From UHGV virus genome UHGV-0103155: a DNA stretch of 39,184 nt. One strand, given 5' to 3'. Of the stretch, positions 151 through 39,125 are shown piece by piece. Below the pieces are notes generated by a model. The model did not search any database, was not told where the DNA came from, and saw nothing but the letters and a program-made list of their open reading frames with translations. This DNA comes from a virus. Position numbers and translations under genes: made by a program. Each line of letters opens with the position of its first letter. Position 1 is the stretch's first letter.

Positions 151-167
151 AATCATTCCCACTCAAT
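151..167. repeat. Left att core copy (AATCATTCCCACTCAAT)
   Basis: Exact 17-bp direct repeat of 39109-39125; contains reverse complement of guaA terminal codons. Confidence 0.6.
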
Positions 168-1684: not shown

Positions 1685-2084
1685 CGTCTTTTCTCCCCGG
1701 AATTAAATCGCGTGGATTGTCTGAACGGTGGTAGAGCCATATACCAATACGCACAGCGACAATTGCTGACACGAATGCGCCAGCAGAGAAAACAATCCCT
1801 TTTTCAAAAGAGTCCTGCGTGATGGTAGGGATCAGGCTGGCTATGCCGATAAGAATTGATGCTGCTGGTTTGTAGAAAAGAAGTCCACAGAGAAAGCTAA
1901 GCATCGATAAGAGTACGCGACGATGAATTGGGTACTCTACCGCAGAGGTAACAAAAATTACCGCACCAGCAAGAGCACCGAGCGCCACCTCTGGCGGAAC
2001 GCCTACGATAACTGCAGCAAGAGAGCTCACACTAAGCCATTGATTTAAAGAATCAGTAGTTAGATGGGCTGACATAATGAACAC
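1671..2084 (-). CDS. Small polytopic membrane protein, holin-like
   Basis: About 135 aa, four hydrophobic helices, charged C-terminal tail; between tailspike and endolysin. Confidence 0.5.
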   Translation of the reverse strand: MFIMSAHLTTDSLNQWLSVSSLAAVIVGVPPEVALGALAGAVIFVTSAVEYPIHRRVLLSMLSFLCGLLFYKPAASILIGIASLIPTITQDSFEKGIVFSAGAFVSAIVAVRIGIWLYHRSDNPRDLIPGRKDDGNA

Positions 2085-2304
2085 CGTTTATTACGCATAA
2101 CAATCTCCTTACTATTGAAGATTCACACATAATAAACCATTTAAGGATAATAGTTACCTCAAAACGCTGTATTTCTACCTTCTACGGCAATGAAAATTTC
2201 GTTCAGAAAATGGTCTAGTGTACCTCTCAGTCACAATTAAAGAAGAAAGAAGCCGAACTTACTTCGTAATAAGCAAGCCGGCTACTAAGATTAATCCTCA
2301 ATAT

Positions 2305-5061
2305 TTAGCTACTTTCAAGCATTGCAAGACGTGATTCTATTTTTTCGATTCTTCTACGCAAATAAGCTGACTCAAGCCATAAACACTGGTCAGTACGGAT
2401 ACCCCACCTATTTCCAGCATTGCAAACCAGAGTTCGCTCTTCTGTTTCGTATTCTTCTTCCATCTCAATTTCGACGCCATCCACAACTTTAGTGATCATC
2501 CTTACCGCCATCACTGGCGCGTATTTATCATCCCATTCATCGTAACAGAGAAGGCCAAATCTGGTTCCATCAATCCCATGCGCGAGGAAAGTGTCTCTCA
2601 CTTGTTGTGCTATAACACCAAAATGCCAGCGGGCACCATCTCCCTTTTCCCTGACGGCATCAAGCCAGCGAAAAGCTACAATCCTGATATCTCCCCATGC
2701 ATCCAGAATTGCATCACCTTCATAACCACGAGACATATACAAGCTGAGCTCACTTGTACTAATCGGTTCACTTTTTTCTCTACCATCTGATGTGTTTATC
2801 GAACCGTTCGCAGAATAAACCTGTGCCCATCTAAATGATGGTGCACCAAGAGATTTGCTGTTATCAATAATTGGTGAAAAATTACCTTTAATGGCAATAT
2901 TTCCAGAGTCGCCGAATATATTAATAACTGCAGAGTCATCACCATGGTTTTTTACGCTTAAGTTTCTTGATGAAATATTTATATCTTTGTTATATCCACT
3001 AACATTAATCCATCTTTTACCATCAATGTGATACCCGTAAATATTTCCGTCTGATTGTTCGTCAGGTGACTCTCTAAGAACAATAGCATCTGCTCCAGAC
3101 GACCATTGTATTTTTGTATCTGTAGGCCTCCAGTTCTTTATAATGAACGAACCATCAGTAAACTCCGTTTTTATTTGTCTATTGTCTACAAATGCGTCTC
3201 TTGGTTTAAACTCACTTGTGTTAACGCTGCTCTGAAGATCAGAAGCAAAAAATCTAAGATTTCCTGTATAACCCTGAGTCTCGGTCAGGTTATACGCAAT
3301 CATAATTCCATTTTCAAACTCAGATGATGTTATTTTAACATCACGGCAATCACCAAAAATGCAATTTCCTTTATCAAATGTTGTTTGAGCTTTGAATTTA
3401 TCAAACCTTAAATTACGAACAGGGAAACCATCAACCTCTAATGCAAAGGATGCAGGAAGGCCAAAGTATTCTGATGGCTTACCTGATGTATGATCAAGAG
3501 TAGTGGCTACTGTATTCTCAAAAACAGTCCCGCTAAAATTATTACCAATTGACGGAAACCTGATTACACTTATTGTACCTTGTATTTCAGGAGAAATACC
3601 AGATAGTGTGATGTTAGCTCCATCAAATGATGCATCTGAATACGTATATACTGATTCACTGCCAGCAATTTTAAACTGTTTAACTGAAGTTATTCTCATC
3701 GACTTTTTATGTTTAAATGTCACTGAGCTTTCAGTATTACTTACAAGATCAATCTGAGGGCTATTCCTTATCGCGATCCCTGACTGGACATAAACGTTAT
3801 TAAAGTGCGTTTTTTCAGGATTTCCCTTCATTGAAAGGCTCCCGTCATTTTCTGTCAGTAGTAGTCCTTTTACCCTCCAATAGCCGACAATCTGTACGTT
3901 ATCAATAACTGAATCACAGCTATCGTATACATGCAACCCTATATCCCAGTCATCACCCAATGAATAAGAATCAGGGTTATTGTATCCTTCAATACCATTT
4001 TTACTTACCATTATTCTCAGGTTGCGTAACTGTGATGCCCTGTTGATACTAACAGCTACGCTCATGGCTTTTGGTGTAGCAGGAGTAACACCTACAGAAT
4101 CTTCATTTGTAAACTCAGTGAACTTACAAGATATCCCTTCAACAATTTTAACTGGTCTTTCATTAGAGATGTTAAAAAAATATTTGTTTTTTTCTCCATC
4201 ACCAGTAAATACAAGATGGGTTCCTTTACTCCAACTTTTTAATAATCTTTCAGGCGCTGGTCTATATGTATCCCAATAATCAATGCCATCACCAATTAAA
4301 GACACTCCAGGAGGCACATCTATGTTCTTAGAAATCATCCATTTACCTGCAGGTATTCTAACGACACTTGCACCAGAATTTATCGCATTAATTAACCATT
4401 CAGACGCATCAACTTCAAAATTTAATGCAGCATATCTTTGCTCAAACGGAACAAAATCAAGAGCGTTAACGTTATCCCGCATCTTATCCTGGAACGTTCG
4501 GTATACTGCTCCAGAACCATACTGAATAAACCAACCAAAACCACCAACAACTCCGGCGATTGCAGCATCAACATAATTGCGCATTGATCGATTATTTACA
4601 GCATCCTGCTCAAGTGATGGATCTGCAAGGTTAGAAATTTTGTTTTGCTTTGCATCGTAATATTTTGCAAGCAAAGATGGTTTCATCAATGCACGTCTGA
4701 ACCATCCAAAACATTGCTGGATCAGCATCGTCAGGTAGTCAAAGGCATCTTCATGCACTTCGGGGAAAAATTTCCCCTGATTGCGAAGGTCTGTCTCCTG
4801 CACCACATCAAGCACACGATCTATCGTAATTCGCCAGCCAGCAGCAAGCGGAGACGGAAGAACCACTGAACCGCCACTATAAGTGCCCGCCCCAGTTACC
4901 GTATAACCGGTATCCAGAACCAATTCTGTTACGTTCCCGTTCAGGTCAGACACCTGAACAACCAGGTCGGATTTTTTGAAAATACGGAAGGTATACGGAA
5001 ATGATGTCGTAGCGCCGTTACCGGTGTATTCGTTGTGGTCAACTTCGGTTGAGACCGTCAT
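2305..5061 (-). CDS. Tailspike/tail fiber receptor-binding protein with C-terminal intramolecular-chaperone-like domain
   Basis: 918 aa; N-terminal virion-anchoring type segment (…YTGNGATTSFPYTF…), long Ser/Thr/Gly/Asn-rich central region, C-terminal about 160 aa beginning SDGREK. Confidence 0.8.
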   Translation of the reverse strand: MTVSTEVDHNEYTGNGATTSFPYTFRIFKKSDLVVQVSDLNGNVTELVLDTGYTVTGAGTYSGGSVVLPSPLAAGWRITIDRVLDVVQETDLRNQGKFFPEVHEDAFDYLTMLIQQCFGWFRRALMKPSLLAKYYDAKQNKISNLADPSLEQDAVNNRSMRNYVDAAIAGVVGGFGWFIQYGSGAVYRTFQDKMRDNVNALDFVPFEQRYAALNFEVDASEWLINAINSGASVVRIPAGKWMISKNIDVPPGVSLIGDGIDYWDTYRPAPERLLKSWSKGTHLVFTGDGEKNKYFFNISNERPVKIVEGISCKFTEFTNEDSVGVTPATPKAMSVAVSINRASQLRNLRIMVSKNGIEGYNNPDSYSLGDDWDIGLHVYDSCDSVIDNVQIVGYWRVKGLLLTENDGSLSMKGNPEKTHFNNVYVQSGIAIRNSPQIDLVSNTESSVTFKHKKSMRITSVKQFKIAGSESVYTYSDASFDGANITLSGISPEIQGTISVIRFPSIGNNFSGTVFENTVATTLDHTSGKPSEYFGLPASFALEVDGFPVRNLRFDKFKAQTTFDKGNCIFGDCRDVKITSSEFENGIMIAYNLTETQGYTGNLRFFASDLQSSVNTSEFKPRDAFVDNRQIKTEFTDGSFIIKNWRPTDTKIQWSSGADAIVLRESPDEQSDGNIYGYHIDGKRWINVSGYNKDINISSRNLSVKNHGDDSAVINIFGDSGNIAIKGNFSPIIDNSKSLGAPSFRWAQVYSANGSINTSDGREKSEPISTSELSLYMSRGYEGDAILDAWGDIRIVAFRWLDAVREKGDGARWHFGVIAQQVRDTFLAHGIDGTRFGLLCYDEWDDKYAPVMAVRMITKVVDGVEIEMEEEYETEERTLVCNAGNRWGIRTDQCLWLESAYLRRRIEKIESRLAMLESS

Positions 5062-5165: not shown

Positions 5166-5180
5166 TTACCTTTCGGGTAA
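5166..5180. promoter_or_regulatory. Palindromic operator-like site TTACCTTTCGGGTAA
   Basis: Perfect TTACC-N5-GGTAA upstream of LexA box and small antirepressor-type gene. Confidence 0.45.
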
Positions 5181-5545: not shown

Positions 5546-5560
5546 TTACCTTTGAGGTAA
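5546..5560. promoter_or_regulatory. Palindromic operator-like site TTACCTTTGAGGTAA
   Basis: Perfect TTACC-N5-GGTAA, itself flanked by inverted repeat GGAGTGC/GCACTCC. Confidence 0.45.
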
Positions 5561-5680: not shown

Positions 5681-5829
5681 AAGCACAGCTATATCCGAAT
5701 TATGGTGGGCTGGGCAGGGGTCCGAAAGGACGCCGGTACCACTTAGGCCGGTACGCCAACCTTGTCCAGTTCACCACCAGTAATTGGCGTTGCGGTGGTG
5801 ATTAAAATCACTAAGTGGAGATAACCACC

Positions 5830-6540
5830 ATGGCTAATGCTCAAACTGCCATCTTCAAATTTGAATCTGTTAACCCTATCCGTTCCATCATTATCGATGG
5901 CCAACCATGGTTTGTAGCCCAAGACGTTTGTAGTGCGCTGCGTATCCAAAACGTCACCCAAGCACTTGAAAAACTGGATGATGATGAAAGGTCTATGTTC
6001 AACATAGGGCATGAACATCGTGCAATTTTTGACAGCCGAGTAAAAGAGATCAACATCATCTCCGAGTCAGGCCTCTACACACTGATCCTCCGCTGCCGCG
6101 ACGCAGTGACACCAGGCACTATCCCCTACCGCTTTCGTAAATGGGTTACAGGTGAGGTTCTTCCTCAGATCCGCCGCACCGGAAGTTACATTAAAAACTC
6201 GCTCCCGCAGGAAGAACGCATAAAGATGGTTGCCGACCAGGTAGCCAACGCCACGGCGTCAGCAGTAATGCAGGCGATGAAGATAGAGAACAAAACCTAC
6301 AGCGCCCCGCTGAAGCCCGGCTACCGCAGCCTGATTCACTCGCCGTCTGGTGTTCTCGGCCTGACGGAGAACTCACTGCTGATGAATCTGCTGAACCAGT
6401 TACAGGACGACGGGCACGACGTATCGGGCGCGGCGGCGGAGCTGACCACCATGTTCTGCTACATCGTCGGTGTGAGTAAATGCCTGCGTGATATCCAGAC
6501 CCACGCGGAATACATCAACGACAAAGCAGGGTTCTTCTGA
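5830..6540 (+). CDS. Antirepressor, Bro-N domain family with Ant-like C-terminal domain
   Basis: N-terminal region resembles Bro-N/phage antirepressor domains; C-terminal domain paralogous to 5257-5514; GGAG before ATG. Confidence 0.75.
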   Translation: MANAQTAIFKFESVNPIRSIIIDGQPWFVAQDVCSALRIQNVTQALEKLDDDERSMFNIGHEHRAIFDSRVKEINIISESGLYTLILRCRDAVTPGTIPYRFRKWVTGEVLPQIRRTGSYIKNSLPQEERIKMVADQVANATASAVMQAMKIENKTYSAPLKPGYRSLIHSPSGVLGLTENSLLMNLLNQLQDDGHDVSGAAAELTTMFCYIVGVSKCLRDIQTHAEYINDKAGFF

Positions 6541-24262: not shown

Positions 24263-24299
24263 TTGACATTTAACGCACAAATTATTACCTTTCAGGTAA
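24263..24299 (+). promoter_or_regulatory. Promoter (-35 TTGACA) with overlapping operator-like site TTACCTTTCAGGTAA
   Basis: Consensus -35 hexamer followed about 17 bp later by AT-rich -10 region overlapping a perfect TTACC-N5-GGTAA palindrome. Confidence 0.45.
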
Positions 24300-24621: not shown

Positions 24622-24698
24622 GTGGCATTAGCTCAGTTGGACAGAGCAACCGCCTTCTAAGCGGTTGGTCGCAGGTTCGAATCCTGCATGCCACGCCA
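24622..24698 (+). tRNA. tRNA-Arg (anticodon UCU)
   Basis: Cloverleaf readable: acceptor GTGGCAT/ATGCCAC, D-loop AGCTCAGTTGG, anticodon loop CTTCTAA, T-loop GGTTCGAATCC, 3' GCCA. Confidence 0.9.
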
Positions 24699-26839: not shown

Positions 26840-27432
26840 TGATTACCATCCTGACGTTCTTTGAGTCGCTTCCTGGCTGCCGCTATGCGATCAGCAATTG
26901 TCACATTCACATTAACATCCAGGCGTTCTTTGAACGCGTTGACGTCGACGTGCTTACCAATCAGTTCGAGGTTCTTCACCTTGTCAGGCCATTTAATTTT
27001 TTTGAGGATTGTCTCTATCGAATCCTCGTTCATGTTCATGATGGTCGATGACAGATCAAAGCCACTAAGCGTAGTGCGCCAGATTTTCGGCCACTCGCGG
27101 ATTGGCTTAAGGCTCCCATCGTCGTTGAGGATGTCGATCACGTCCATCTGGTCGATCTCCACCAGGCGCATGAGAACGTAATCAGCACTGACGCGCATTC
27201 GTTTGTTGCGCTCCTCCATCAACTCGGCAATCCGTTTTTGAATGCGTTCATCGCGCATCATGACACTGGCTTTAACTGCCGCTGTATTTGGGGAGAATCC
27301 TGCGTTAATCGCTGCCTGAGTCTGGTTTTCAGGCGTTTTGATGTATGACTGGCAATAAGCCTCCTGCATTGCTGTTAGTGGCTTAAATTGCGTTGATTTG
27401 CGTTTATAGGTTTTAGGTTCAGCAGGCATCAT
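26836..27432 (-). CDS. Terminase small subunit
   Basis: About 200 aa from internal start (MMPAEPK…) with AAGGTGG RBS; immediately upstream of and coupled to large terminase. Confidence 0.6.
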   Translation of the reverse strand: MMPAEPKTYKRKSTQFKPLTAMQEAYCQSYIKTPENQTQAAINAGFSPNTAAVKASVMMRDERIQKRIAELMEERNKRMRVSADYVLMRLVEIDQMDVIDILNDDGSLKPIREWPKIWRTTLSGFDLSSTIMNMNEDSIETILKKIKWPDKVKNLELIGKHVDVNAFKERLDVNVNVTIADRIAAARKRLKERQDGNQ

Positions 27433-27541: not shown

Positions 27542-27553
27542 GTGACATGTCAC
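27542..27553. promoter_or_regulatory. 12-bp perfect palindrome GTGACATGTCAC (copy 3 of 3)
   Basis: Overlaps the stop codon of the 27550-27888 gene at the early/late boundary upstream of the terminase genes. Confidence 0.5.
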
Positions 27554-27888
27554 ACTATTAATTTCGTTTCATGCCAGCCTTTAGTCACCCAGCATTGCGA
27601 GTCACCATCACACGGGCATGAATTCACAGGAACTCTCTCGCCGCACTTACCGCAACGTTTTCTGCTGATCGATTTTATACGCCCGTGCACGCGTGCATCA
27701 TCCTGGCGGATCAGTAACGCTATATACTCACCAAATTCGTAAGGCGCACGCCCGGGGCGACGCGTGGCACAGTTACGCTCCAGCATTTCAATTTCCTGAG
27801 CATCAAGCACAATTTCCAGCTTACGCACACCAGATGCAGCTTGTCTGGCTCTCTGAGCGGCTTTGCGCTCTGCTGCTGATTTAGCCAT
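27550..27888 (-). CDS. Small basic protein with C-terminal Cys-rich zinc-ribbon-like motif (candidate DNA-binding regulator)
   Basis: About 112 aa; Arg/Ala-rich N-terminus, C-terminal CGKCG…CPCDG; last gene before terminase. Confidence 0.4.
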   Translation of the reverse strand: MAKSAAERKAAQRARQAASGVRKLEIVLDAQEIEMLERNCATRRPGRAPYEFGEYIALLIRQDDARVHGRIKSISRKRCGKCGERVPVNSCPCDGDSQCWVTKGWHETKLIV

Positions 27889-28162
27889 CAATATTCACCT
27901 TTATCGCGAACACCTTTACCGGTTTATCTCCGAAGTGCGGATGTGTGATTGTCTTGATTTCATACCCTTCATACGGGACGTCTATTCTGCGGCTGGAATC
28001 GTCGCGCTTCGGATATCCCTTTGTGATAATCAGGCGGTCATACTCGCGGAACATAATTCGCTTATTCCAGTAGTCATTACACAGGCGATACTCTTCCGTT
28101 TTCTCTCCGCGAATCATGGCATCGAAGTATTCACCTTTAACGGCAAGTTGCAGGTTAGCCAC
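27881..28162 (-). CDS. Hypothetical protein
   Basis: 93-aa ORF in tightly packed early-gene array, start/stop coupled to neighbours. Confidence 0.4.
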   Translation of the reverse strand: MANLQLAVKGEYFDAMIRGEKTEEYRLCNDYWNKRIMFREYDRLIITKGYPKRDDSSRRIDVPYEGYEIKTITHPHFGDKPVKVFAIKVNIDG

Positions 28163-32546: not shown

Positions 32547-32561
32547 GTTACCTTTTAGGTA
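32547..32561. promoter_or_regulatory. Imperfect operator-like site TTACCTTTTAGGTAC
   Basis: One mismatch to TTACC-N5-GGTAA; between cro-like gene and next early gene. Confidence 0.3.
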
Positions 32562-32884: not shown

Positions 32885-32947
32885 TCACCCATAAGGTAAC
32901 AAAAATCAAGGATAGTTACCCATGGGGTGCATTTACCTGTTGGGTAA
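32885..32947. promoter_or_regulatory. Immunity-region operator cluster: three TTACC-N5-GGTAA-type sites between divergent cro-like and repressor genes
   Basis: Sites near 32885-32899 (1 mismatch), 32916-32930 (2 mismatches), 32933-32947 (perfect); first lies between a TTGATT -35 and -10 of the leftward promoter. Confidence 0.55.
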
Positions 32948-33002: not shown

Positions 33003-33587
33003 ATGAAAAGTATCCAGGACGTCCGCAGGCAAAATCTCAACGACTTGATCGACCGTGAATTCAATGGTGTTCAGACGCGGATGGCAGAAAAACTTGGAAC
33101 TCAGGCAAATCTGGTAAACCGCTGGGCTCTTGGCAAGAAGGTTATCGGCGACCAGGTTGCGCGAAAAATTGAAGCTGCCGCCAATAAACCCCGTAACTGG
33201 CTTGATATCGATCGCTCGCTTTCTCAGGAAGGTTTTCAGCCTGTCGGCCCAAGCGACATTGGTCAGCTGGCGGCTCACAACCTGGAACGCTGGATGAGCG
33301 AAAGCCGCGACCTTTCAACACAGGGAAAACTTCACCGCGCATCCGGCGTCGCCCAGGTGACAATCAGCCGCCTGTTAAACAATGAGGTCAGCGTTTCCAT
33401 TTCCACCCTGGAGAATGTTGCATCCGCATTCGGGCGTCACGGCTATGAATTACTGATTCACCCGCACGACCCTGCGACTATCAACTATGACCGCTCGCGC
33501 TACGCATTGTTACCCGAAACAGAGAAGGCAAAGATCGAAAGTTACATTGAATTTATCATCAGCCAGAACGAAAAAAACAAACAATAA
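33003..33587 (+). CDS. Prophage repressor with two HTH domains, no S24 peptidase domain
   Basis: 194 aa; two XRE-like HTH segments; no Ser/Lys autocleavage motifs; divergent from cro-like gene across operator cluster. Confidence 0.7.
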   Translation: MKSIQDVRRQNLNDLIDREFNGVQTRMAEKLGTQANLVNRWALGKKVIGDQVARKIEAAANKPRNWLDIDRSLSQEGFQPVGPSDIGQLAAHNLERWMSESRDLSTQGKLHRASGVAQVTISRLLNNEVSVSISTLENVASAFGRHGYELLIHPHDPATINYDRSRYALLPETEKAKIESYIEFIISQNEKNKQ

Positions 33588-33610
33588 AATCATATTTTTC
33601 AGTAAGTAAG

Positions 33611-33632
33611 CCGCCTCATGGCGGCTTTTTTA
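33611..33632 (+). terminator. Rho-independent terminator
   Basis: Stem GCCGCC/GGCGGC with 4-nt loop then T6. Confidence 0.6.
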
Positions 33633-33644
33633 TTGCCAGCAAGA

Positions 33645-33720
33645 TTACCTTATGGGTAATTTTTTTAACTCATATCTATTGACATCAAACCAGATACGCA
33701 TAATAATTACCTCAACGGTA
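33645..33720 (+). promoter_or_regulatory. Rightward promoter region (TTGACA -35) with two operator-like sites (TTACCTTATGGGTAA, TTACCTCAACGGTAA)
   Basis: Two perfect TTACC-N5-GGTAA palindromes bracketing a TTGACA hexamer upstream of the recombination operon. Confidence 0.45.
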
Positions 33721-33740
33721 ACAGACCGAGGTAACAAATT

Positions 33741-33895: not shown

Positions 33896-34195
33896 ATGAA
33901 CGTTAATCAGCAGAAAAATCTTCAAAAAATCATGCTGGCATTCGACAAGGACTACCGCCTGTCAGAACAGCTATATGACCGACAAGTTGAACTGATTGAG
34001 AGCATCCGACTTCATCAACTGTCCTCAACTTTCGACGTTGTAACAGGCAAAGGCGTTCGCCAAGAAGTACTGGAGGCTGCTAAAGACAGCCCTGAGTTCG
34101 AAGAACTGATGGATGCCTATCGGCGAGAGGCAATGGCAATTATCGCCCGCTGGGATCTGGCGGATAAGCTTGATGGACAGAGGGACGCGGCATGA
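33896..34195 (+). CDS. Hypothetical protein
   Basis: 99 aa from internal ATG with GGGAGGG RBS. Confidence 0.45.
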   Translation: MNVNQQKNLQKIMLAFDKDYRLSEQLYDRQVELIESIRLHQLSSTFDVVTGKGVRQEVLEAAKDSPEFEELMDAYRREAMAIIARWDLADKLDGQRDAA

Positions 34196-35091
34196 TGCGG
34201 AACGCTGGAATCATGGATAGAACAAAATACATCGGAGGAAGCGATGTTGCAGGGATTCTTGGAATTAGCCCATGGCGCACCCCGCTTGAGGTTTATCTGG
34301 ATAAGGTCCAGCCACGTGTCAAACCAGTAGACCAAAGCAAGCAGAAAGTTTTCACGCGTGGCCAGCGTATGGAGCCATACGTAATAGACCTGCTTTCTGA
34401 GGAAACAGGGATGGAAATCGTTCATCGCGGAAACCGCTATATCCACCGTGATTACGATTTTATTGCAGCTGAGATCGATGCAGAAGCAGCGTCAGGCGAG
34501 AACATTGAGATCAAAACAGTTAGTCCGTTCAAGGCCAAAGAATGGGGAGAAATCCAGACAGATGCAATTCCTGTGCATTACACGGCCCAGGCCATGCACG
34601 GGTTGATGGTTACAAACAAACAGGTATGCGTTTTCGGTGTGCTTATCGGTGGCGACGACTTCCGAATCTATCGGGTTGAGCGTGATGAAGAAACTATCCA
34701 GGCGATCTTAGAAAAAGAAATCGCTTTCTGGGACCGAGTGAAAAATCTTAACCCGCCGGAAGCTACCAGCGTAAGCGATGTATCGCTGATGTTTGAGAAA
34801 GATGCCGGGACAAGTATCGAGGCTGACGGAAAGGCACTCGCACTATTCAACGATCTACGAGACATGAAATCACGCAGAAAATCACTGGAAGAAGAAATAG
34901 CTATATCAGAAGAGAAGCTGAAGATGTACATGCAAGAGCACTCAGTCCTGACCCTGGACGGAAAGCCGCTCTGCACATGGAAATCTCAGATCAGCAACAG
35001 ATTCGACCAGAAGCTATTCCAGTCAGTACACCCTGAGTTATTCGAAAAATTCAAAACAACAACGACACAACGCGTCTTCAGAATGAAGTAA
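34192..35091 (+). CDS. YqaJ-like viral recombinase exonuclease
   Basis: 299 aa; sequence pattern of YqaJ/lambda-Exo-type PD-(D/E)XK nucleases; immediately upstream of RecT. Confidence 0.7.
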   Translation: MMRNAGIMDRTKYIGGSDVAGILGISPWRTPLEVYLDKVQPRVKPVDQSKQKVFTRGQRMEPYVIDLLSEETGMEIVHRGNRYIHRDYDFIAAEIDAEAASGENIEIKTVSPFKAKEWGEIQTDAIPVHYTAQAMHGLMVTNKQVCVFGVLIGGDDFRIYRVERDEETIQAILEKEIAFWDRVKNLNPPEATSVSDVSLMFEKDAGTSIEADGKALALFNDLRDMKSRRKSLEEEIAISEEKLKMYMQEHSVLTLDGKPLCTWKSQISNRFDQKLFQSVHPELFEKFKTTTTQRVFRMK

Positions 35092-35100
35092 GGAGAAAAA

Positions 35101-36123
35101 ATGTCTATCAATGCACTTAAGGCAGCGGCTACCGGTAACCAAGTTGCACATCATAATGAGAAACCAACAACTCTGGCCGGACTTCTGGCAGACCCAAAAA
35201 TTAAAGCTCAGATGGCTTTGGCACTTCCAAAGCACATGACAGCAGACCGTCTGGCGCGCATAGCAACCACAGAGATCAGAAAGGTTCCAAAACTTGCATC
35301 ATGCGACCAAGCCAGCTTCCTGGGGGCAATTATGCAATGTGCCCAATTGGGTCTTGAACCAGGCGGAGCTCTTGGACACGCTTACCTGATACCGTTCGAC
35401 AAACGCCAGAAAGTAAATGGAAGATGGGAAACCGTATCTACAGAAGCACAGCTGATTATCGGCTATCGCGGAATGATTGACCTTGCCCGCCGCTCTGGGC
35501 AGATCCTGAGTATCTCGGCTCGTACCGTACATACAAACGACAAATTCAGCTACTCATACGGCCTGGAAGAAACGCTCGAGCATTTACCTTGCGAAACAGG
35601 TGACCGCGGAGAATTAACGCACGTTTACGCCGTTGCACGACTGAAAGATGGCGGAGTCCAATTTGAAGTTATGAGCCGGGCAGACGTTGAGAAAGTTCGT
35701 GCACTGAGCAAAGCCGGTAGCAGTGGCCCATGGGTTGATCACTTCGATGAGATGGCTAAAAAAACAGTAATTCGCCGACTGTTCAAATATCTTCCTGTTT
35801 CTATTGAAATGCAGAAGGCTGTTGTTATGGATGAGCGCGCTGAAGCTGGACTTAGCCAAGATAACGCAGCTGTTATCACTGGTGAATATTCCGTAGTTGA
35901 CGATGAGCGTCAACACCTGTCGCCAATTTCAGATTCAGAACGAGAAGAAGCTCGAGAATATATCATCGCGATACTTAATAGCCTGGATCCATCTGCTGAA
36001 GATGCAAAAACGATGTTCAAGCGCGCTGAAAATGAAATTAACACCATGGCTGAAAAGCTCGGTGATGAATATCACCAAAAATTCATGATGACGCTTAACG
36101 ATATGCGTCCAGAATTCGAGTAA
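35101..36123 (+). CDS. recT: RecT-family single-strand annealing protein
   Basis: 340 aa with clear RecT-family character; paired with upstream exonuclease. Confidence 0.8.
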   Translation: MSINALKAAATGNQVAHHNEKPTTLAGLLADPKIKAQMALALPKHMTADRLARIATTEIRKVPKLASCDQASFLGAIMQCAQLGLEPGGALGHAYLIPFDKRQKVNGRWETVSTEAQLIIGYRGMIDLARRSGQILSISARTVHTNDKFSYSYGLEETLEHLPCETGDRGELTHVYAVARLKDGGVQFEVMSRADVEKVRALSKAGSSGPWVDHFDEMAKKTVIRRLFKYLPVSIEMQKAVVMDERAEAGLSQDNAAVITGEYSVVDDERQHLSPISDSEREEAREYIIAILNSLDPSAEDAKTMFKRAENEINTMAEKLGDEYHQKFMMTLNDMRPEFE

Positions 36124-36172: not shown

Positions 36173-36421
36173 ATGAAAGGTGCATTAGGTAAGAAAGAAC
36201 TCCTGGCGGTGGTGCCACTGTCATGGAGCACTATCGACCGTATGGAGCGCGCAGGGGAATTTCCTAAACGCTGGTATATCACCGATAAACGCTGCGCATG
36301 GAACCGTGATGAAGTTGAGCGTTGGCTTGATGAACGTCAGGCAGCAAGCCCGGCAGAGTTCCAGGGTAAAAAGCCTCCTGTTCAGCAACGTGTATATCGT
36401 CCCGTGAGCAACGCTGCATGA
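36173..36421 (+). CDS. AlpA-family HTH regulator / putative excisionase
   Basis: 82 aa; AlpA/Xis-like pattern (…LSWSTIDRMERAGEFPKRWYI…). Confidence 0.6.
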   Translation: MKGALGKKELLAVVPLSWSTIDRMERAGEFPKRWYITDKRCAWNRDEVERWLDERQAASPAEFQGKKPPVQQRVYRPVSNAA

Positions 36422-36530
36422 GTGCGCTGCTAAGGCACTGGAGCAAATGGTCAGGATGGTACTTATTCCTGGCCTCTGTTTCAGCATGGCTTTATCTGCT
36501 GGCATTAATTTTCAGAGAGGGTTGGATTAA

Positions 36531-36830
36531 GTGAGAAAGTTAAGCCGACTTGAAAAATATCACATGAATAAGGTTTCAATGCGCAGTCCGTCAAAGATTG
36601 TCGCCGTTACTCCTGCGGCGATAGAGATCGAAAAACGCGCGATTGAAAGAGAGAAAAAAGGGCAATTCCGCATTGCCGCTCACCTTTGGCTTCAGTGTAT
36701 GGATGTTGCTTCTGGTGATGTTGAACGTGCAAGGATCGCGGTTCGCAGGGACCAATGTATCACAAAAGGTAACGGCCTTCGCCGTGGCGACTATAGCGGC
36801 ATAGGATGTTGTGGGGTGGTTTATGACTAA
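36531..36830 (+). CDS. PerC/Pch-family transcriptional regulator-like protein
   Basis: About 90-99 aa; segment …FRIAAHLWLQCMDVASGDVERARIAVRRDQC… matches the PerC-family signature pattern. Confidence 0.45.
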   Translation: MRKLSRLEKYHMNKVSMRSPSKIVAVTPAAIEIEKRAIEREKKGQFRIAAHLWLQCMDVASGDVERARIAVRRDQCITKGNGLRRGDYSGIGCCGVVYD

Positions 36831-37473
36831 GAAATACACACTAATCTATGCAGATCCACCCTGGGTATACCGGGACAAAGCCGCAGATGGTAATCGCGGT
36901 GCCGGTTTTAAATATCCGGTTATGAGTGTGCTGGATATCTGCCGCCTTCCTGTGTGGGATTTGGCCGATGAAAACTGTCTGTTGGCCATGTGGTGGGTGC
37001 CAACACAACCACTCGAAGCACTAAAAGTTGTTGAAGCCTGGGGATTCCGTCTGATGACGATGAAGGGCTTCACGTGGATAAAATGTGGTAGTCGACAACC
37101 AGATAAACTGGTTATGGGTATGGGACACATGACTCGCGCCAATAGTGAAGATTGCCTGTTTGCGGTAAAGGGAAAACTACCTACGCGCATTAATGCAGGG
37201 ATCGTTCAGTCATTTACCGCACCGCGGCTTGAGCATTCAAGAAAGCCAGATATCGTTCGTGAAAAACTTGTGCAATTATTAGGCGATGTTTCTCGCATTG
37301 AACTGTTCGCCCGCCAGACGTCTCATGGCTTCGATGTTTGGGGTAATCAGTGCGAAGACCCGGCAGTGCAACTACACCCTGGATACGCGTTGGATATTGG
37401 CGGATTAACAAATGCATTCAGCAATGCTCCGCTGTCACCAACAGACATCCAGGGGCGGGAGCGTGCTGCATGA
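36823..37473 (+). CDS. MT-A70 family DNA N6-adenine methyltransferase
   Basis: DPPW catalytic motif near N-terminus (…LIYADPPWVY…); about 216 aa. Confidence 0.75.
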   Translation: MTKKYTLIYADPPWVYRDKAADGNRGAGFKYPVMSVLDICRLPVWDLADENCLLAMWWVPTQPLEALKVVEAWGFRLMTMKGFTWIKCGSRQPDKLVMGMGHMTRANSEDCLFAVKGKLPTRINAGIVQSFTAPRLEHSRKPDIVREKLVQLLGDVSRIELFARQTSHGFDVWGNQCEDPAVQLHPGYALDIGGLTNAFSNAPLSPTDIQGRERAA

Positions 37474-37664
37474 ACAGGGCATCACCAGCAGATTTAAGAA
37501 AATGCCTTGAAACTGCAAACATGCTTGCACACAGCGGGATCAGGTTTGTTCCAATTCCCGCTGTCACTGATGCTGAATTTGCAACACTGTCAGCAATATT
37601 CGAAAACAAAATTGAATCACTGGCAGCAGAAGCAGAGATGGAAGAAAATCAGCAGAACTATTAA
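37470..37664 (+). CDS. Hypothetical protein, translationally coupled to methyltransferase
   Basis: ATGA overlap with methyltransferase stop; 64-aa ORF. Confidence 0.4.
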   Translation: MNRASPADLRKCLETANMLAHSGIRFVPIPAVTDAEFATLSAIFENKIESLAAEAEMEENQQNY

Positions 37665-37667
37665 ACG

Positions 37668-38918
37668 TTATTCCCCCGCCATCCACTTCTCAAACTTCGA
37701 CGGGGAGAACGGAATCAGATCCGTATGCTCCCCGTCAATCCATGAATCAATCATATCGGCCCACTGCTGCAACATGTAGGCGCGCTGTCTGGCGTATTCC
37801 GCTTTGTTATATACGGCGCGCACACCTTTCTGCTCATGTGCCAGAGCCTTTTCAATCCAGTCTGAAGGATAACCAGCCTCATGCAACAACGTACTGGCTG
37901 TACGGCGCATATCATGTACAGTGAAGTCCTGAATATGCTCACCATCTTCATTTATTATTTTCACCGTTCTGTCGATCAGAGAGTTCAGCGCGGCATTAGA
38001 TAATGGCTTCCGGAAATTGTAACGACCAGGAACCAGATATTCACTTCCACCAGCGCACATCTGCAACCCGATTAATATATCCTGTGCCTGTTTAGGCAGG
38101 TAAATAACGTGCGCCCGACTTCCCTTCATGCGGTCTGAAGGAATTGTCCATGTCCATTTTTTAAAATCTATTTCATCCCACGTTGCATTGGTGAATTCGC
38201 CTTTACGAACCATAGTGATAAGCACCAGCTTTAAAGCCATTTTCATAGTGCCCATAGCACCAATGGCATCCAGCGTGCGGAAGAACAGACCAATTTCTTC
38301 TGGTGTCAGTGTTCGCTCTCGTGGTTTAAATATGGCGATAGACGAAGGTTTAATGTCAGCCGCAGGATTAAACAAACCATGACCACGGTCATTGGCGTGA
38401 CGGTATACGCTGCTGATGATCTCCCTGGCCTGCACTGCTGTTGCCCGACCACCGCGTTCGACAATCCGGTCACACAAATCACGAACCATCGATGTGGTAA
38501 TTTCAGCCATTATTTTGTTGCCAAGAACCGGAAGTATGTCACGGTCGATCACCGCCTGCTTCATTGCGCGGGTACTGTCAGCCAGGATGACGTGTTTCAT
38601 ATAACTGTCGGTATGTACCGCAAACGTCTCGGCACCACGAATCTTTTTGATACCGTCACGTTTAGCCGCAGCCGGCGACTGGCCTGCTTTAAGCAGCTTC
38701 TTTGCAGCAATCAGTTCTTCTCGCGCTTCTGCCAGGCTGATACCGTCACGCCCATACTGCCCGATTACCAGTGTTTCGCGGCGACCGTTGATACGGTAGT
38801 CATAGCGAAACGAGACCGTGCCTGACGTAAGCACAGCTACATACAGCCCGTCACGATCGGAGACCTTGTACAGTTTGTCCTGCGGCTTGAGGTTTTTTAA
38901 TTTTGTATCGGTAAGCAC
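37668..38918 (-). CDS. int: Tyrosine integrase (P4-like family)
   Basis: 416 aa; N-terminal arm-binding-type segment and C-terminal catalytic region (…HDMRRT…, …LAHE…); adjacent to right att core. Confidence 0.85.
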   Translation of the reverse strand: MLTDTKLKNLKPQDKLYKVSDRDGLYVAVLTSGTVSFRYDYRINGRRETLVIGQYGRDGISLAEAREELIAAKKLLKAGQSPAAAKRDGIKKIRGAETFAVHTDSYMKHVILADSTRAMKQAVIDRDILPVLGNKIMAEITTSMVRDLCDRIVERGGRATAVQAREIISSVYRHANDRGHGLFNPAADIKPSSIAIFKPRERTLTPEEIGLFFRTLDAIGAMGTMKMALKLVLITMVRKGEFTNATWDEIDFKKWTWTIPSDRMKGSRAHVIYLPKQAQDILIGLQMCAGGSEYLVPGRYNFRKPLSNAALNSLIDRTVKIINEDGEHIQDFTVHDMRRTASTLLHEAGYPSDWIEKALAHEQKGVRAVYNKAEYARQRAYMLQQWADMIDSWIDGEHTDLIPFSPSKFEKWMAGE

Positions 38919-38960: not shown

Positions 38961-38975
38961 ATACCTTTAAGGTAA
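38961..38975. promoter_or_regulatory. Imperfect operator-like site ATACCTTTAAGGTAA upstream of integrase
   Basis: One mismatch to TTACC-N5-GGTAA, about 45 bp upstream of the int start. Confidence 0.3.
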
Positions 38976-39108: not shown

Positions 39109-39125
39109 AATCATTCCCACTCAAT
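39109..39125. repeat. Right att core copy (AATCATTCCCACTCAAT)
   Basis: Exact 17-bp direct repeat of 151-167; overlaps guaA stop codon. Confidence 0.6.

Follow-up and report, generated by a model that had tools for sequence, protein, structure and literature searches.

PerC of enteropathogenic Escherichia coli (EPEC) and the PchABC proteins are described as activating LEE, the enterocyte effacement locus, and the Pch proteins of groups 2 and 3 (PchD and PchE) as devoid of LEE activation (PMC6265319, PMC11773190). PchE represses csgD and curli, and group-1 pch is enhanced by SOS induction (PMC6265319). Genes of the same family are carried, together with AlpA, by phage-inducible chromosomal islands (PICIs) (PMC11773190, PMC6092414); the PerC-like product of one of them, EcCIMP1_025, represses LEE1, and two other PICI copies are without effect (PMC11773190). 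DNA-binding motifs are not known in Pch, whose activating effect comes from the disruption of complexes of H-NS, StpA and Hha (PMC4764244). Since LEE1 is activated by Pch only when silenced by H-NS/StpA (with Hha), Pch acts as a de-repressor (PMC4764244). Aar, the archetype of the ANR proteins, is three-helical, does not bind DNA and directly contacts AggR and H-NS (PMC5570504), and a potent anti-H-NS function is known for a small phage protein, T7 protein 5.5 (cited in PMC5570504). The PerC-like gene described here is located at positions 36531..36830 of the virus genome UHGV-0103155, a stretch of 39,184 nucleotides hereafter called the window.

36531..36830, + strand: small helical protein of the PerC family, 99 aa (N-terminal extension 1-33, core 34-80, tail 81-99)

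We read this gene as encoding an early-operon PerC-family modulator that would act by protein contact, likely against silencing, and on balance we regard this as probable. That the product is an early-operon modulator of the PerC family is held with good confidence. The anti-silencing mechanism, which is drawn by analogy with relatives, is put forward tentatively.

Membership in the PerC family had been proposed in a sequence-only reading of the window, and was borne out by a profile search, in which the protein scores 30.1 bits against Pfam PF06069 PerC (E 6e-7), with a gathering score of 22.6 bits. PF06069 hits are also precomputed for orthologues. The protein is 40% identical to EPEC PerC (pMAR2) over 60 residues (pairwise BLASTP, E 2e-10), and 40% identical over 40 residues to a group-1 Pch from an O157:H7 genome (E 1e-6). 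Residues A37, E41, G44, A49, W53, E65, R66, A70, R73, C76 and I77 are invariant in the alignment with EPEC PerC, and the G-x-aromatic-R-x-A-A-x-x-W, E-R and R-R-x-x-C motifs of the core are alignable with PerC. The window protein matches only positions 5-50 of the 90 positions of the model, whereas PerC and group-1 Pch fit the full model (positions 1-90, 143 bits, and 1-89, 149 bits, respectively). The C-terminal half of the model, present in PerC and PchABC, is thus absent from the window protein. Residues 34-80 make up a PerC/ANR-like core, and are flanked by a lineage-specific N-terminal extension (1-33) and a lineage-specific tail (81-99) with the motif DYSGIxCxGVVYD. When 1.84 billion cluster representatives were exhaustively searched with a profile, only 72 clusters were retrieved at E <= 1e-3, and the names of the distant representatives are no more specific than 'PerC family'. 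A tblastn search of a phage collection with PerC found a single fragment, a group-1 pch. The family call is correct, though not new, the gene being already annotated as PerC-family in public records.

PerC-family genes are found in diverse contexts. Group-1 pch genes occupy the slot that separates lysis from terminase genes in lambdoid prophages (median three copies; 673 genomes), and in Yersinia a 76-aa form follows the primase of a satellite-like element. Forms of 140-160 aa, in which the PerC core is placed behind an N-terminal domain, were noticed among the clusters; by inspection of the sequence, this domain appears winged-helix-like. In lambdoid prophages of E. coli, the gene of a 159-aa form sits immediately upstream of that for the Q antiterminator.

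The open reading frame (ORF) coincides exactly with 36531..36830 on the + strand, stop included, and encodes 99 aa from a GTG start. The latter is preceded at 10 nt by the sequence GAGG, and overlaps the TGA stop of a 38-aa ORF (GTGA); the stop of the PerC-like gene similarly overlaps ATG 36823 of an MT-A70 methylase gene (ATGACTAA). The phrog_868 profile ('transcriptional activator') covers residues 1-99 of 99 (E 6e-62). Among 5.8 billion proteins searched, 134 qualified as homologues at E <= 1e-3, most of them 97-99 aa in length; they come from Escherichia, Salmonella, Citrobacter, Klebsiella, Raoultella, Enterobacter, Kosakonia, Pluralibacter and other genera. Comparison with three syntenic orthologues (60-67% identity) gave ratios of nonsynonymous to synonymous substitution rates (dN/dS) of 0.16-0.25, with dS saturated, and the gene is under purifying selection. 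Of 5426 complete E. coli genomes, 535 (about 10%) carry it with an identity of at least 95%. Length alone is no proof of coding, since 111 ORFs of at least 80 aa result from the six-frame translation of the window, and an ORF of 82 aa is antisense to the PerC-like gene. The matches to phrog_868 and PF06069, the 134 homologues and the dN/dS values nevertheless argue for a genuine gene, as do cross-genus synteny and the conservation in 535 genomes, and the probability that we are dealing with a chance ORF or a decayed gene devoid of function is negligible. The antisense ORF (36591..36839) was considered as a gene in its own right, and ruled out by the dN/dS and HMM evidence for the PerC-like gene.

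Shorter forms of the gene are given in public records: 88 aa from ATG 36564 in phage phiV10, and 83 aa from ATG 36579 according to the Prokaryotic Genome Annotation Pipeline (PGAP). The N-terminal tract K-L-S/T-R-L-E-K-Y-H is kept across genera, and the ATG start of the relatives is found at the same place. Because of this conservation the 99-aa form is favoured, in agreement with the span earlier assigned to the gene; both public starts look too short. The helical signature noted at that time was also recovered: the structure predicted by AlphaFold2 from a 48-sequence alignment (mean pLDDT, a per-residue confidence score, 76) features four helices at residues 6-17, 28-42, 46-59 and 63-79. In the model, the core is a hairpin of helices resembling a tetratricopeptide repeat (TPR) followed by a third helix, about 45 residues in all, and no DNA-binding fold was recognised in the predicted structure. 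The GC profile revealed no AT-rich island around the gene, which is 48% GC, as the window.

The sequence-only reading assigned the gene to a lysogenic operon, presumably because a repressor gene is found upstream on the same strand. The organization of the DNA between the two genes speaks differently.

33003..33587, + strand: prophage repressor, 194 aa, helix-turn-helix (corresponds to PhiV10p40, putative repressor; Pfam HTH_3 in orthologues)
33608..33627, + strand: intrinsic terminator of the repressor transcript (8-bp stem with 6 GC pairs, then TTTTTTATT)
33645..33721, + strand: PL-like early promoter with two operators (TTACCTTATGGGTAA, 19 nt, TTGACA, 17 nt, AATAAT, TTACCTCAACGGTAA)

On this side of the prophage, the lysogenic transcript carries the repressor gene alone. 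Its ZX5 counterpart, ORF21, has repressor activity verified by overexpression (PMC9782041). The terminator is a strong one, is annotated at the same place in phiV10, and is kept in most of the relatives examined. Beyond it a promoter scan detected a separate promoter at 33679-33707 (TTGACA-17-AATAAT, 11 of 12 consensus matches), bracketed by exact TTACC-N5-GGTAA palindromes, one at 33645, 19 nt 5' of the -35 hexamer, the other at 33707, abutting the -10 hexamer. Palindromes of the same type are found in the divergent immunity region of the repressor and cro-like genes (32885-32947), at 32885 (one mismatch), 32916 (two mismatches) and 32933 (exact). This succession of elements (terminator, first operator, 19 nt, -35, 17 nt, -10, second operator) is kept in phiV10 and in prophages of Kosakonia, Klebsiella and Enterobacter, where spacers and N5 bases differ while the layout stays. 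No other promoter-like site was found by the scan on the + strand between 33707 and 36531, and no + strand terminator was found by scanning the flanks of the PerC-like gene. The terminator past the repressor and the separate, operator-flanked promoter therefore define a repressor-controlled early-left operon of the lambda PL type. The operon is expected to be shut in the lysogen by the repressor sitting on the two putative operators, and expression of the PerC-like gene in the lysogen is unlikely, because its promoter is operator-flanked and lies 3' of the repressor terminator. Nor is the gene a moron, because it overlaps the gene on either side and is not equipped with a separate promoter or terminator.

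The operon includes, in the order, two small ORFs followed by the genes below, runs toward the att/int end of the prophage, and stops against a convergent P4-type integrase gene next to attR and guaA.

34192..35091, + strand: YqaJ-type exonuclease (PF09588, E 1.1e-23)
35101..36123, + strand: RecT single-strand annealing protein (PF03837, E 4.4e-57)
36173..36421, + strand: AlpA-family excisionase/regulator (PF05930, 24.2 bits, cutoff 21; phrog_66, E 2e-16)
36418..36534, + strand: small membrane protein, 38 aa (phrog_17484, E 2.6e-27; corresponds to PhiV10p35)
36823..37473, + strand: MT-A70 DNA methyltransferase (PF05063, E 2.8e-22; ATG 36823 is the start in both PGAP and phiV10)
37470..37664, + strand: DUF1382 protein, last gene of the operon (PF07131, E 7.4e-30, residues 41-100 of a long ORF; corresponds to PhiV10p32)
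37668..38918, - strand: P4-type tyrosine integrase, convergent (Arm-DNA-bind_3, Phage_int_M, Phage_integrase)

The PerC-like gene is inserted between the 38-aa ORF and the methylase gene. The phrog_66 label reads 'excisionase and transcriptional regulator'. The 38-aa ORF is found in the prophages of some relatives; PGAP leaves out this membrane ORF, which is translationally coupled to the PerC-like gene. The exonuclease and RecT are separate ORFs in the window (299 and 340 aa), and a single 586-aa 'RecE-RecT fusion' in the phiV10 record. A frameshift in phiV10, or a difference in its sequence, may account for the fusion.

In guaA-integrated prophages of Kosakonia cowanii, Klebsiella oxytoca and Enterobacter the series repressor...exo-RecT-AlpA-(small ORF)-PerC is constant, and the interval from PerC to int is variable, hosting DUF1317, DUF1382, Dam or MT-A70 and unknown genes. 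The AlpA-PerC adjacency is thus kept in the prophages of all three genera. The PerC-like gene thus belongs to the early genes that form the core of this lineage of phages. To our knowledge Klebsiella, Enterobacter and Kosakonia lack LEE, and the persistence of a core early gene in such hosts therefore points to a role intrinsic to the phage.

According to the mechanism that we propose, the repressor bound to the two TTACC-N5-GGTAA operators would keep the early-left promoter silent in the lysogen. Upon induction or infection the PerC-like gene would be transcribed with those for the exonuclease, RecT, the AlpA/excisionase protein, the 38-aa peptide and the MT-A70 methylase, and the coupling of starts and stops would have it translated together with its neighbours. 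The protein would then act on the host transcription or nucleoid machinery by protein-protein contact, most likely loosening silencing of the H-NS type as do Pch and Aar, and the benefit would go to the lytic and excision programme of the phage itself. If the anti-silencing hypothesis is true, a conserved early gene of Uetakevirus prophages would gain a function, an incremental advance, and the PerC and ANR families would be mechanistically linked.

Some data weigh against this proposal. Pch has been located at specific chromosomal sites by chromatin immunoprecipitation, and an attempt to co-precipitate H-NS and PchA revealed no interaction (PMC4764244); for both reasons, the PerC core may act unlike Aar. 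The mechanism is transferred by homology from relatives to the subfamily found in the window, and the N-terminal extension and C-terminal tail proper to this subfamily may matter. The operators are putative, being assigned from sequence architecture with the repressor as presumed binder, and some low-level read-through of the repressor terminator may occur.

A different mode of action is suggested by the similarity of the core to ANR proteins. The protein could be an anti-activator, binding and inactivating either a factor of the AraC/XylS type or the phage repressor, Cro or AlpA, and would act negatively. The NCBIfam model ANR_neg_reg (NF033650) matches residues 35-77 of the window protein at 23.6 bits (E 3.4e-5), orthologues score up to 25.6 bits and other PerC-family proteins tested 19-31.5 bits, some of them 29-31; PerC and Pch score 18.2 and 13.6 bits, respectively. 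The core has three helices and the invariant C76, and a highly conserved cysteine is found also in ANR proteins (PMC4038620). EcCIMP1_025, which represses LEE1, was suspected by its authors to have an ANR-like function (PMC11773190). The curated cutoff of NF033650 is however 32 bits, and the window protein, at 23.6 bits, fails it while passing that of PerC. ANR proteins are 39-80 aa long, and in all the enteroaggregative and enterotoxigenic E. coli (EAEC and ETEC) genomes analysed their genes are linked to an AraC/XylS activator gene (PMC4038620). The window protein is longer (99 aa), and no AraC/XylS gene is found among the neighbours scanned (AlpA, 38-aa peptide, MT-A70 methylase, DUF1382 and integrase). 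An anti-activator of this type looks therefore unlikely. A regulator internal to the phage, working with AlpA to activate or time integrase expression, excision or late transcription, is somewhat less likely still. It would explain why the AlpA-PerC pair is constant and the genes downstream vary, and why the two genes co-occur in PICIs of Gram-negative bacteria (PMC11773190); it would fit as well with the operator-like palindrome (38961) found 43-57 nt upstream of int, and with the PerC-family form placed next to the Q antiterminator gene in lambdoid prophages. Adjacency to AlpA alone, however, is no proof of a functional link, no DNA-binding fold is predicted for the protein, and a separate candidate regulator, matching phrog_536 (27550..27891), is encoded just upstream of the terminase genes. 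The hypothesis that the PerC-like gene is the late activator of the phage was also considered, and is unlikely in view of the accessory position in the early-left operon and of the phrog_536 candidate at the terminase genes.

The sequence-only reading favoured instead a PerC/Pch-type activator of ler and LEE1, expressed in the lysogen and tuning host virulence. The hypothesis has some appeal, as the protein does belong to the PerC family, the gene is found in some genomes of O157:H7 and other STEC (E. coli that produce Shiga toxin), phiV10 infects O157:H7, and a phage-timed effect on LEE is conceivable, group-1 pch being both prophage-borne and SOS-enhanced (PMC6265319). Yet transcription of the operon would start at a promoter flanked by operators and placed 3' of the repressor terminator, and only positions 5-50 of the 90 positions of PF06069 are matched, the C-terminal half of every known LEE-activating member being missing. 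Pch groups 2 and 3 and the PICI copies do not activate LEE, and EcCIMP1_025 is repressive (PMC6265319, PMC11773190). The context of the gene is unlike the late-region moron slot of group-1 pch; syntenic orthologues reside in Klebsiella, Enterobacter and Kosakonia, which we take to be without LEE, and the names or sources of some carrier strains suggest avian pathogenic E. coli (APEC), ETEC and extraintestinal isolates. Phage ZX5 is 97.7% identical to the window over the PerC-like region, and lysogeny by ZX5 left HeLa adherence, biofilm formation, stress response and virulence of the host all unchanged (PMC9782041). Lysogenic conversion is disfavoured because neither adherence, biofilm nor virulence was altered. 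Relatives that activate, ignore or repress LEE, a match restricted to the core and orthologues in genera taken to lack LEE leave the earlier inference about host virulence unsupported, and a LEE activator expressed in the lysogen is highly improbable. Most likely, judging from the features described, the PerC-like gene is neither a lysogenic-conversion factor nor a LEE-specific virulence switch. In an enterohaemorrhagic E. coli (EHEC) host undergoing induction, LEE might conceivably be affected, in a direction not predictable from family membership.

It is worth noting that all the PerC-family proteins tested match NF033650 below threshold over the same core of about 45 residues, with scores ranging from 13.6 to 31.5 bits. 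On these profile matches, PerC activators and ANR anti-activators probably form one superfamily. A broader conjecture, more doubtful than the anti-silencing mechanism, is that PerC and ANR make up one superfamily of TPR-like modules of about 45 residues, ancestrally early genes of temperate phages and satellites, of which the phiV10-type member would be an H-NS-type antagonist timed by induction. If so, LEE-activating PerC and Pch would have arisen late, by specialisation of a generic phage device for counter-silencing, and the phiV10-type member, released alongside AlpA, would antagonise xenogeneic silencing of the H-NS type or another host regulator.

The region is 98% identical to phiV10, O157 typing phages 9 and 10, phiv142-3, ZX5 and TL-2011b, and the window corresponds to a Uetakevirus (phiV10/epsilon15-like) prophage integrated at guaA. 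Its ends are marked by an exact direct repeat of 17 bp, AATCATTCCCACTCAAT, found at 151-167 and 39109-39125.

151..167, no strand: attL core, left end of the prophage (17-bp repeat AATCATTCCCACTCAAT)
39109..39125, no strand: attR core, marking the right end of the prophage at the 3' terminus of guaA (repeat of 151-167)

Matches to phiV10-like phages start at position 151 of the window, and in a near-identical prophage the integrase gene adjoins guaA. The 3' end of guaA is the integration site of phage ZX5 (PMC9782041). In searches of the 5426 complete E. coli genomes with both ends of the window, the closest prophages are 99.1-99.2% identical, and the flanks are core chromosome (guaA side). 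The 535 carriers of the PerC-like gene, classified by strain name or source only, include O157:H7, other STEC, APEC, ETEC, and canine and human extraintestinal isolates. The gene is there named by PGAP 'PerC family transcriptional regulator'. The label 'PerC family transcriptional regulator' or 'activator', which the gene bears in roughly one complete E. coli genome out of ten, invites a virulence reading. Because of the operon anatomy, the core-only match and the opposite behaviour of relatives, it should not be read as indicating a LEE activator or a lysogenic-conversion factor.

The TTACC-N5-GGTAA palindrome is not limited to the early-left promoter. Ten exact copies are found in the window, at 5166, 5546, 6611, 24285, 27450, 30540, 30602, 32933, 33645 and 33707, versus about 0.04 expected by chance, a figure that we estimated from the length of the pattern and the size of the window. 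Copies with one mismatch are found at 32548, 32885 and 38961, and one with two mismatches at 32916; when up to two mismatches are allowed, sites are 38, versus 11.1 +/- 3.2 in shuffled sequences. A second instance of the dual-operator promoter layout, with the same spacing, is seen at 30616-30540 of the minus strand, upstream of a DUF1064/resolvase-like gene. The single copy at 5546, which adjoins a -10-like hexamer, is upstream of an anti-repressor gene (5815..6540), and that at 38961 is 43-57 nt upstream of int. The scatter of the palindrome across the prophage, with several copies at putative promoters, is suggestive of the control of at least four promoters by a single regulator, presumably the repressor. 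Two copies, at 27432 and 27450, lie between the small terminase gene and the gene immediately upstream of it (27550..27891, - strand). The latter encodes a 113-aa 'transcriptional regulator' (phrog_536, E 1.4e-54) for which no NCBIfam match was found, and which is a candidate late-gene regulator.

Other segments of the prophage deserve mention. The tail-fibre region (2305..5061, - strand) is markedly AT-rich, the only such region in the GC profile, with 37-41% GC over 2001-5000 against 49% in the window, as would suit a receptor-binding module exchanged horizontally. Related phages match in patches there, with 78-81% query coverage in several joined segments across the first 25 kb. A phage-borne tRNA-Arg gene (anticodon TCT; 24622-24698, + strand) is located in an intergenic gap of the structural and packaging region, near the palindrome at 24285.

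Among the systems described so far, the closest to the window gene is its orthologue PhiV10p34 of phiV10 (NC_007804), with about 98% DNA identity and the same operon and neighbours. PhiV10p34 is already annotated, by similarity, as 'transcriptional activator; PF06069'; the phiV10 and PGAP entries differ from the window form in the later start (88 and 83 aa versus 99 aa). No experimental work on this orthologue group was found in the literature. EPEC PerC and the window protein share the tract E-x-K-G-x-[FY]-R-x-A-A-x-x-W...E-R...A...R-x-x-C-I, and both are small, helical and without a known DNA-binding motif. PerC, however, is encoded on a plasmid (pMAR2/pEAF), where its gene lies downstream of perA and perB; it has no counterpart of the 33-aa N-terminal extension, and features about 25 C-terminal residues that are missing from the window protein. 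Of the two, PerC is the demonstrated activator of LEE1.

PchA, PchB and PchC are prophage-encoded as the window gene and share the same core, and the relief of H-NS/StpA/Hha silencing described for them is the best available model for it (PMC4764244). Group-1 Pch proteins are 104 aa long and their genes, typically three per genome, occupy the lysis-terminase slot of lambdoid prophages, whereas the window gene is single-copy, and is located between alpA and the methylase region in the early-left operon of a podovirus-type prophage. Neither setting of the LEE-activating groups, perABC on pEAF or the multi-copy lysis-terminase slot, is thus that of the window gene. PchD, PchE and the PICI proteins (EcCIEDL933, EcCICFT073, EcCIMP1_025), compared on the basis of the literature, are divergent members found on AlpA-encoding mobile elements; unlike the window gene, they sit in satellites or in other prophage positions. 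Because these members are inactive or repressive, membership in the PerC family is no predictor of LEE activation.

The core of the window protein resembles Aar and other ANR proteins in being small and three-helical with a conserved cysteine (the invariant C76), and differs from them in the sub-cutoff score, the length of 99 aa and the lack of an AraC/XylS gene among the scanned neighbours. In its position between the recombination genes and xis/int, the gene corresponds to the accessory genes of the lambda exo-xis interval; DUF1317 and DUF1382, found in the same interval of the guaA prophages, are presumably families of the lambda-type exo-xis region. The likeness to T7 gp5.5 is one of concept only, a small phage protein acting against H-NS, and is to be taken as a functional analogy.

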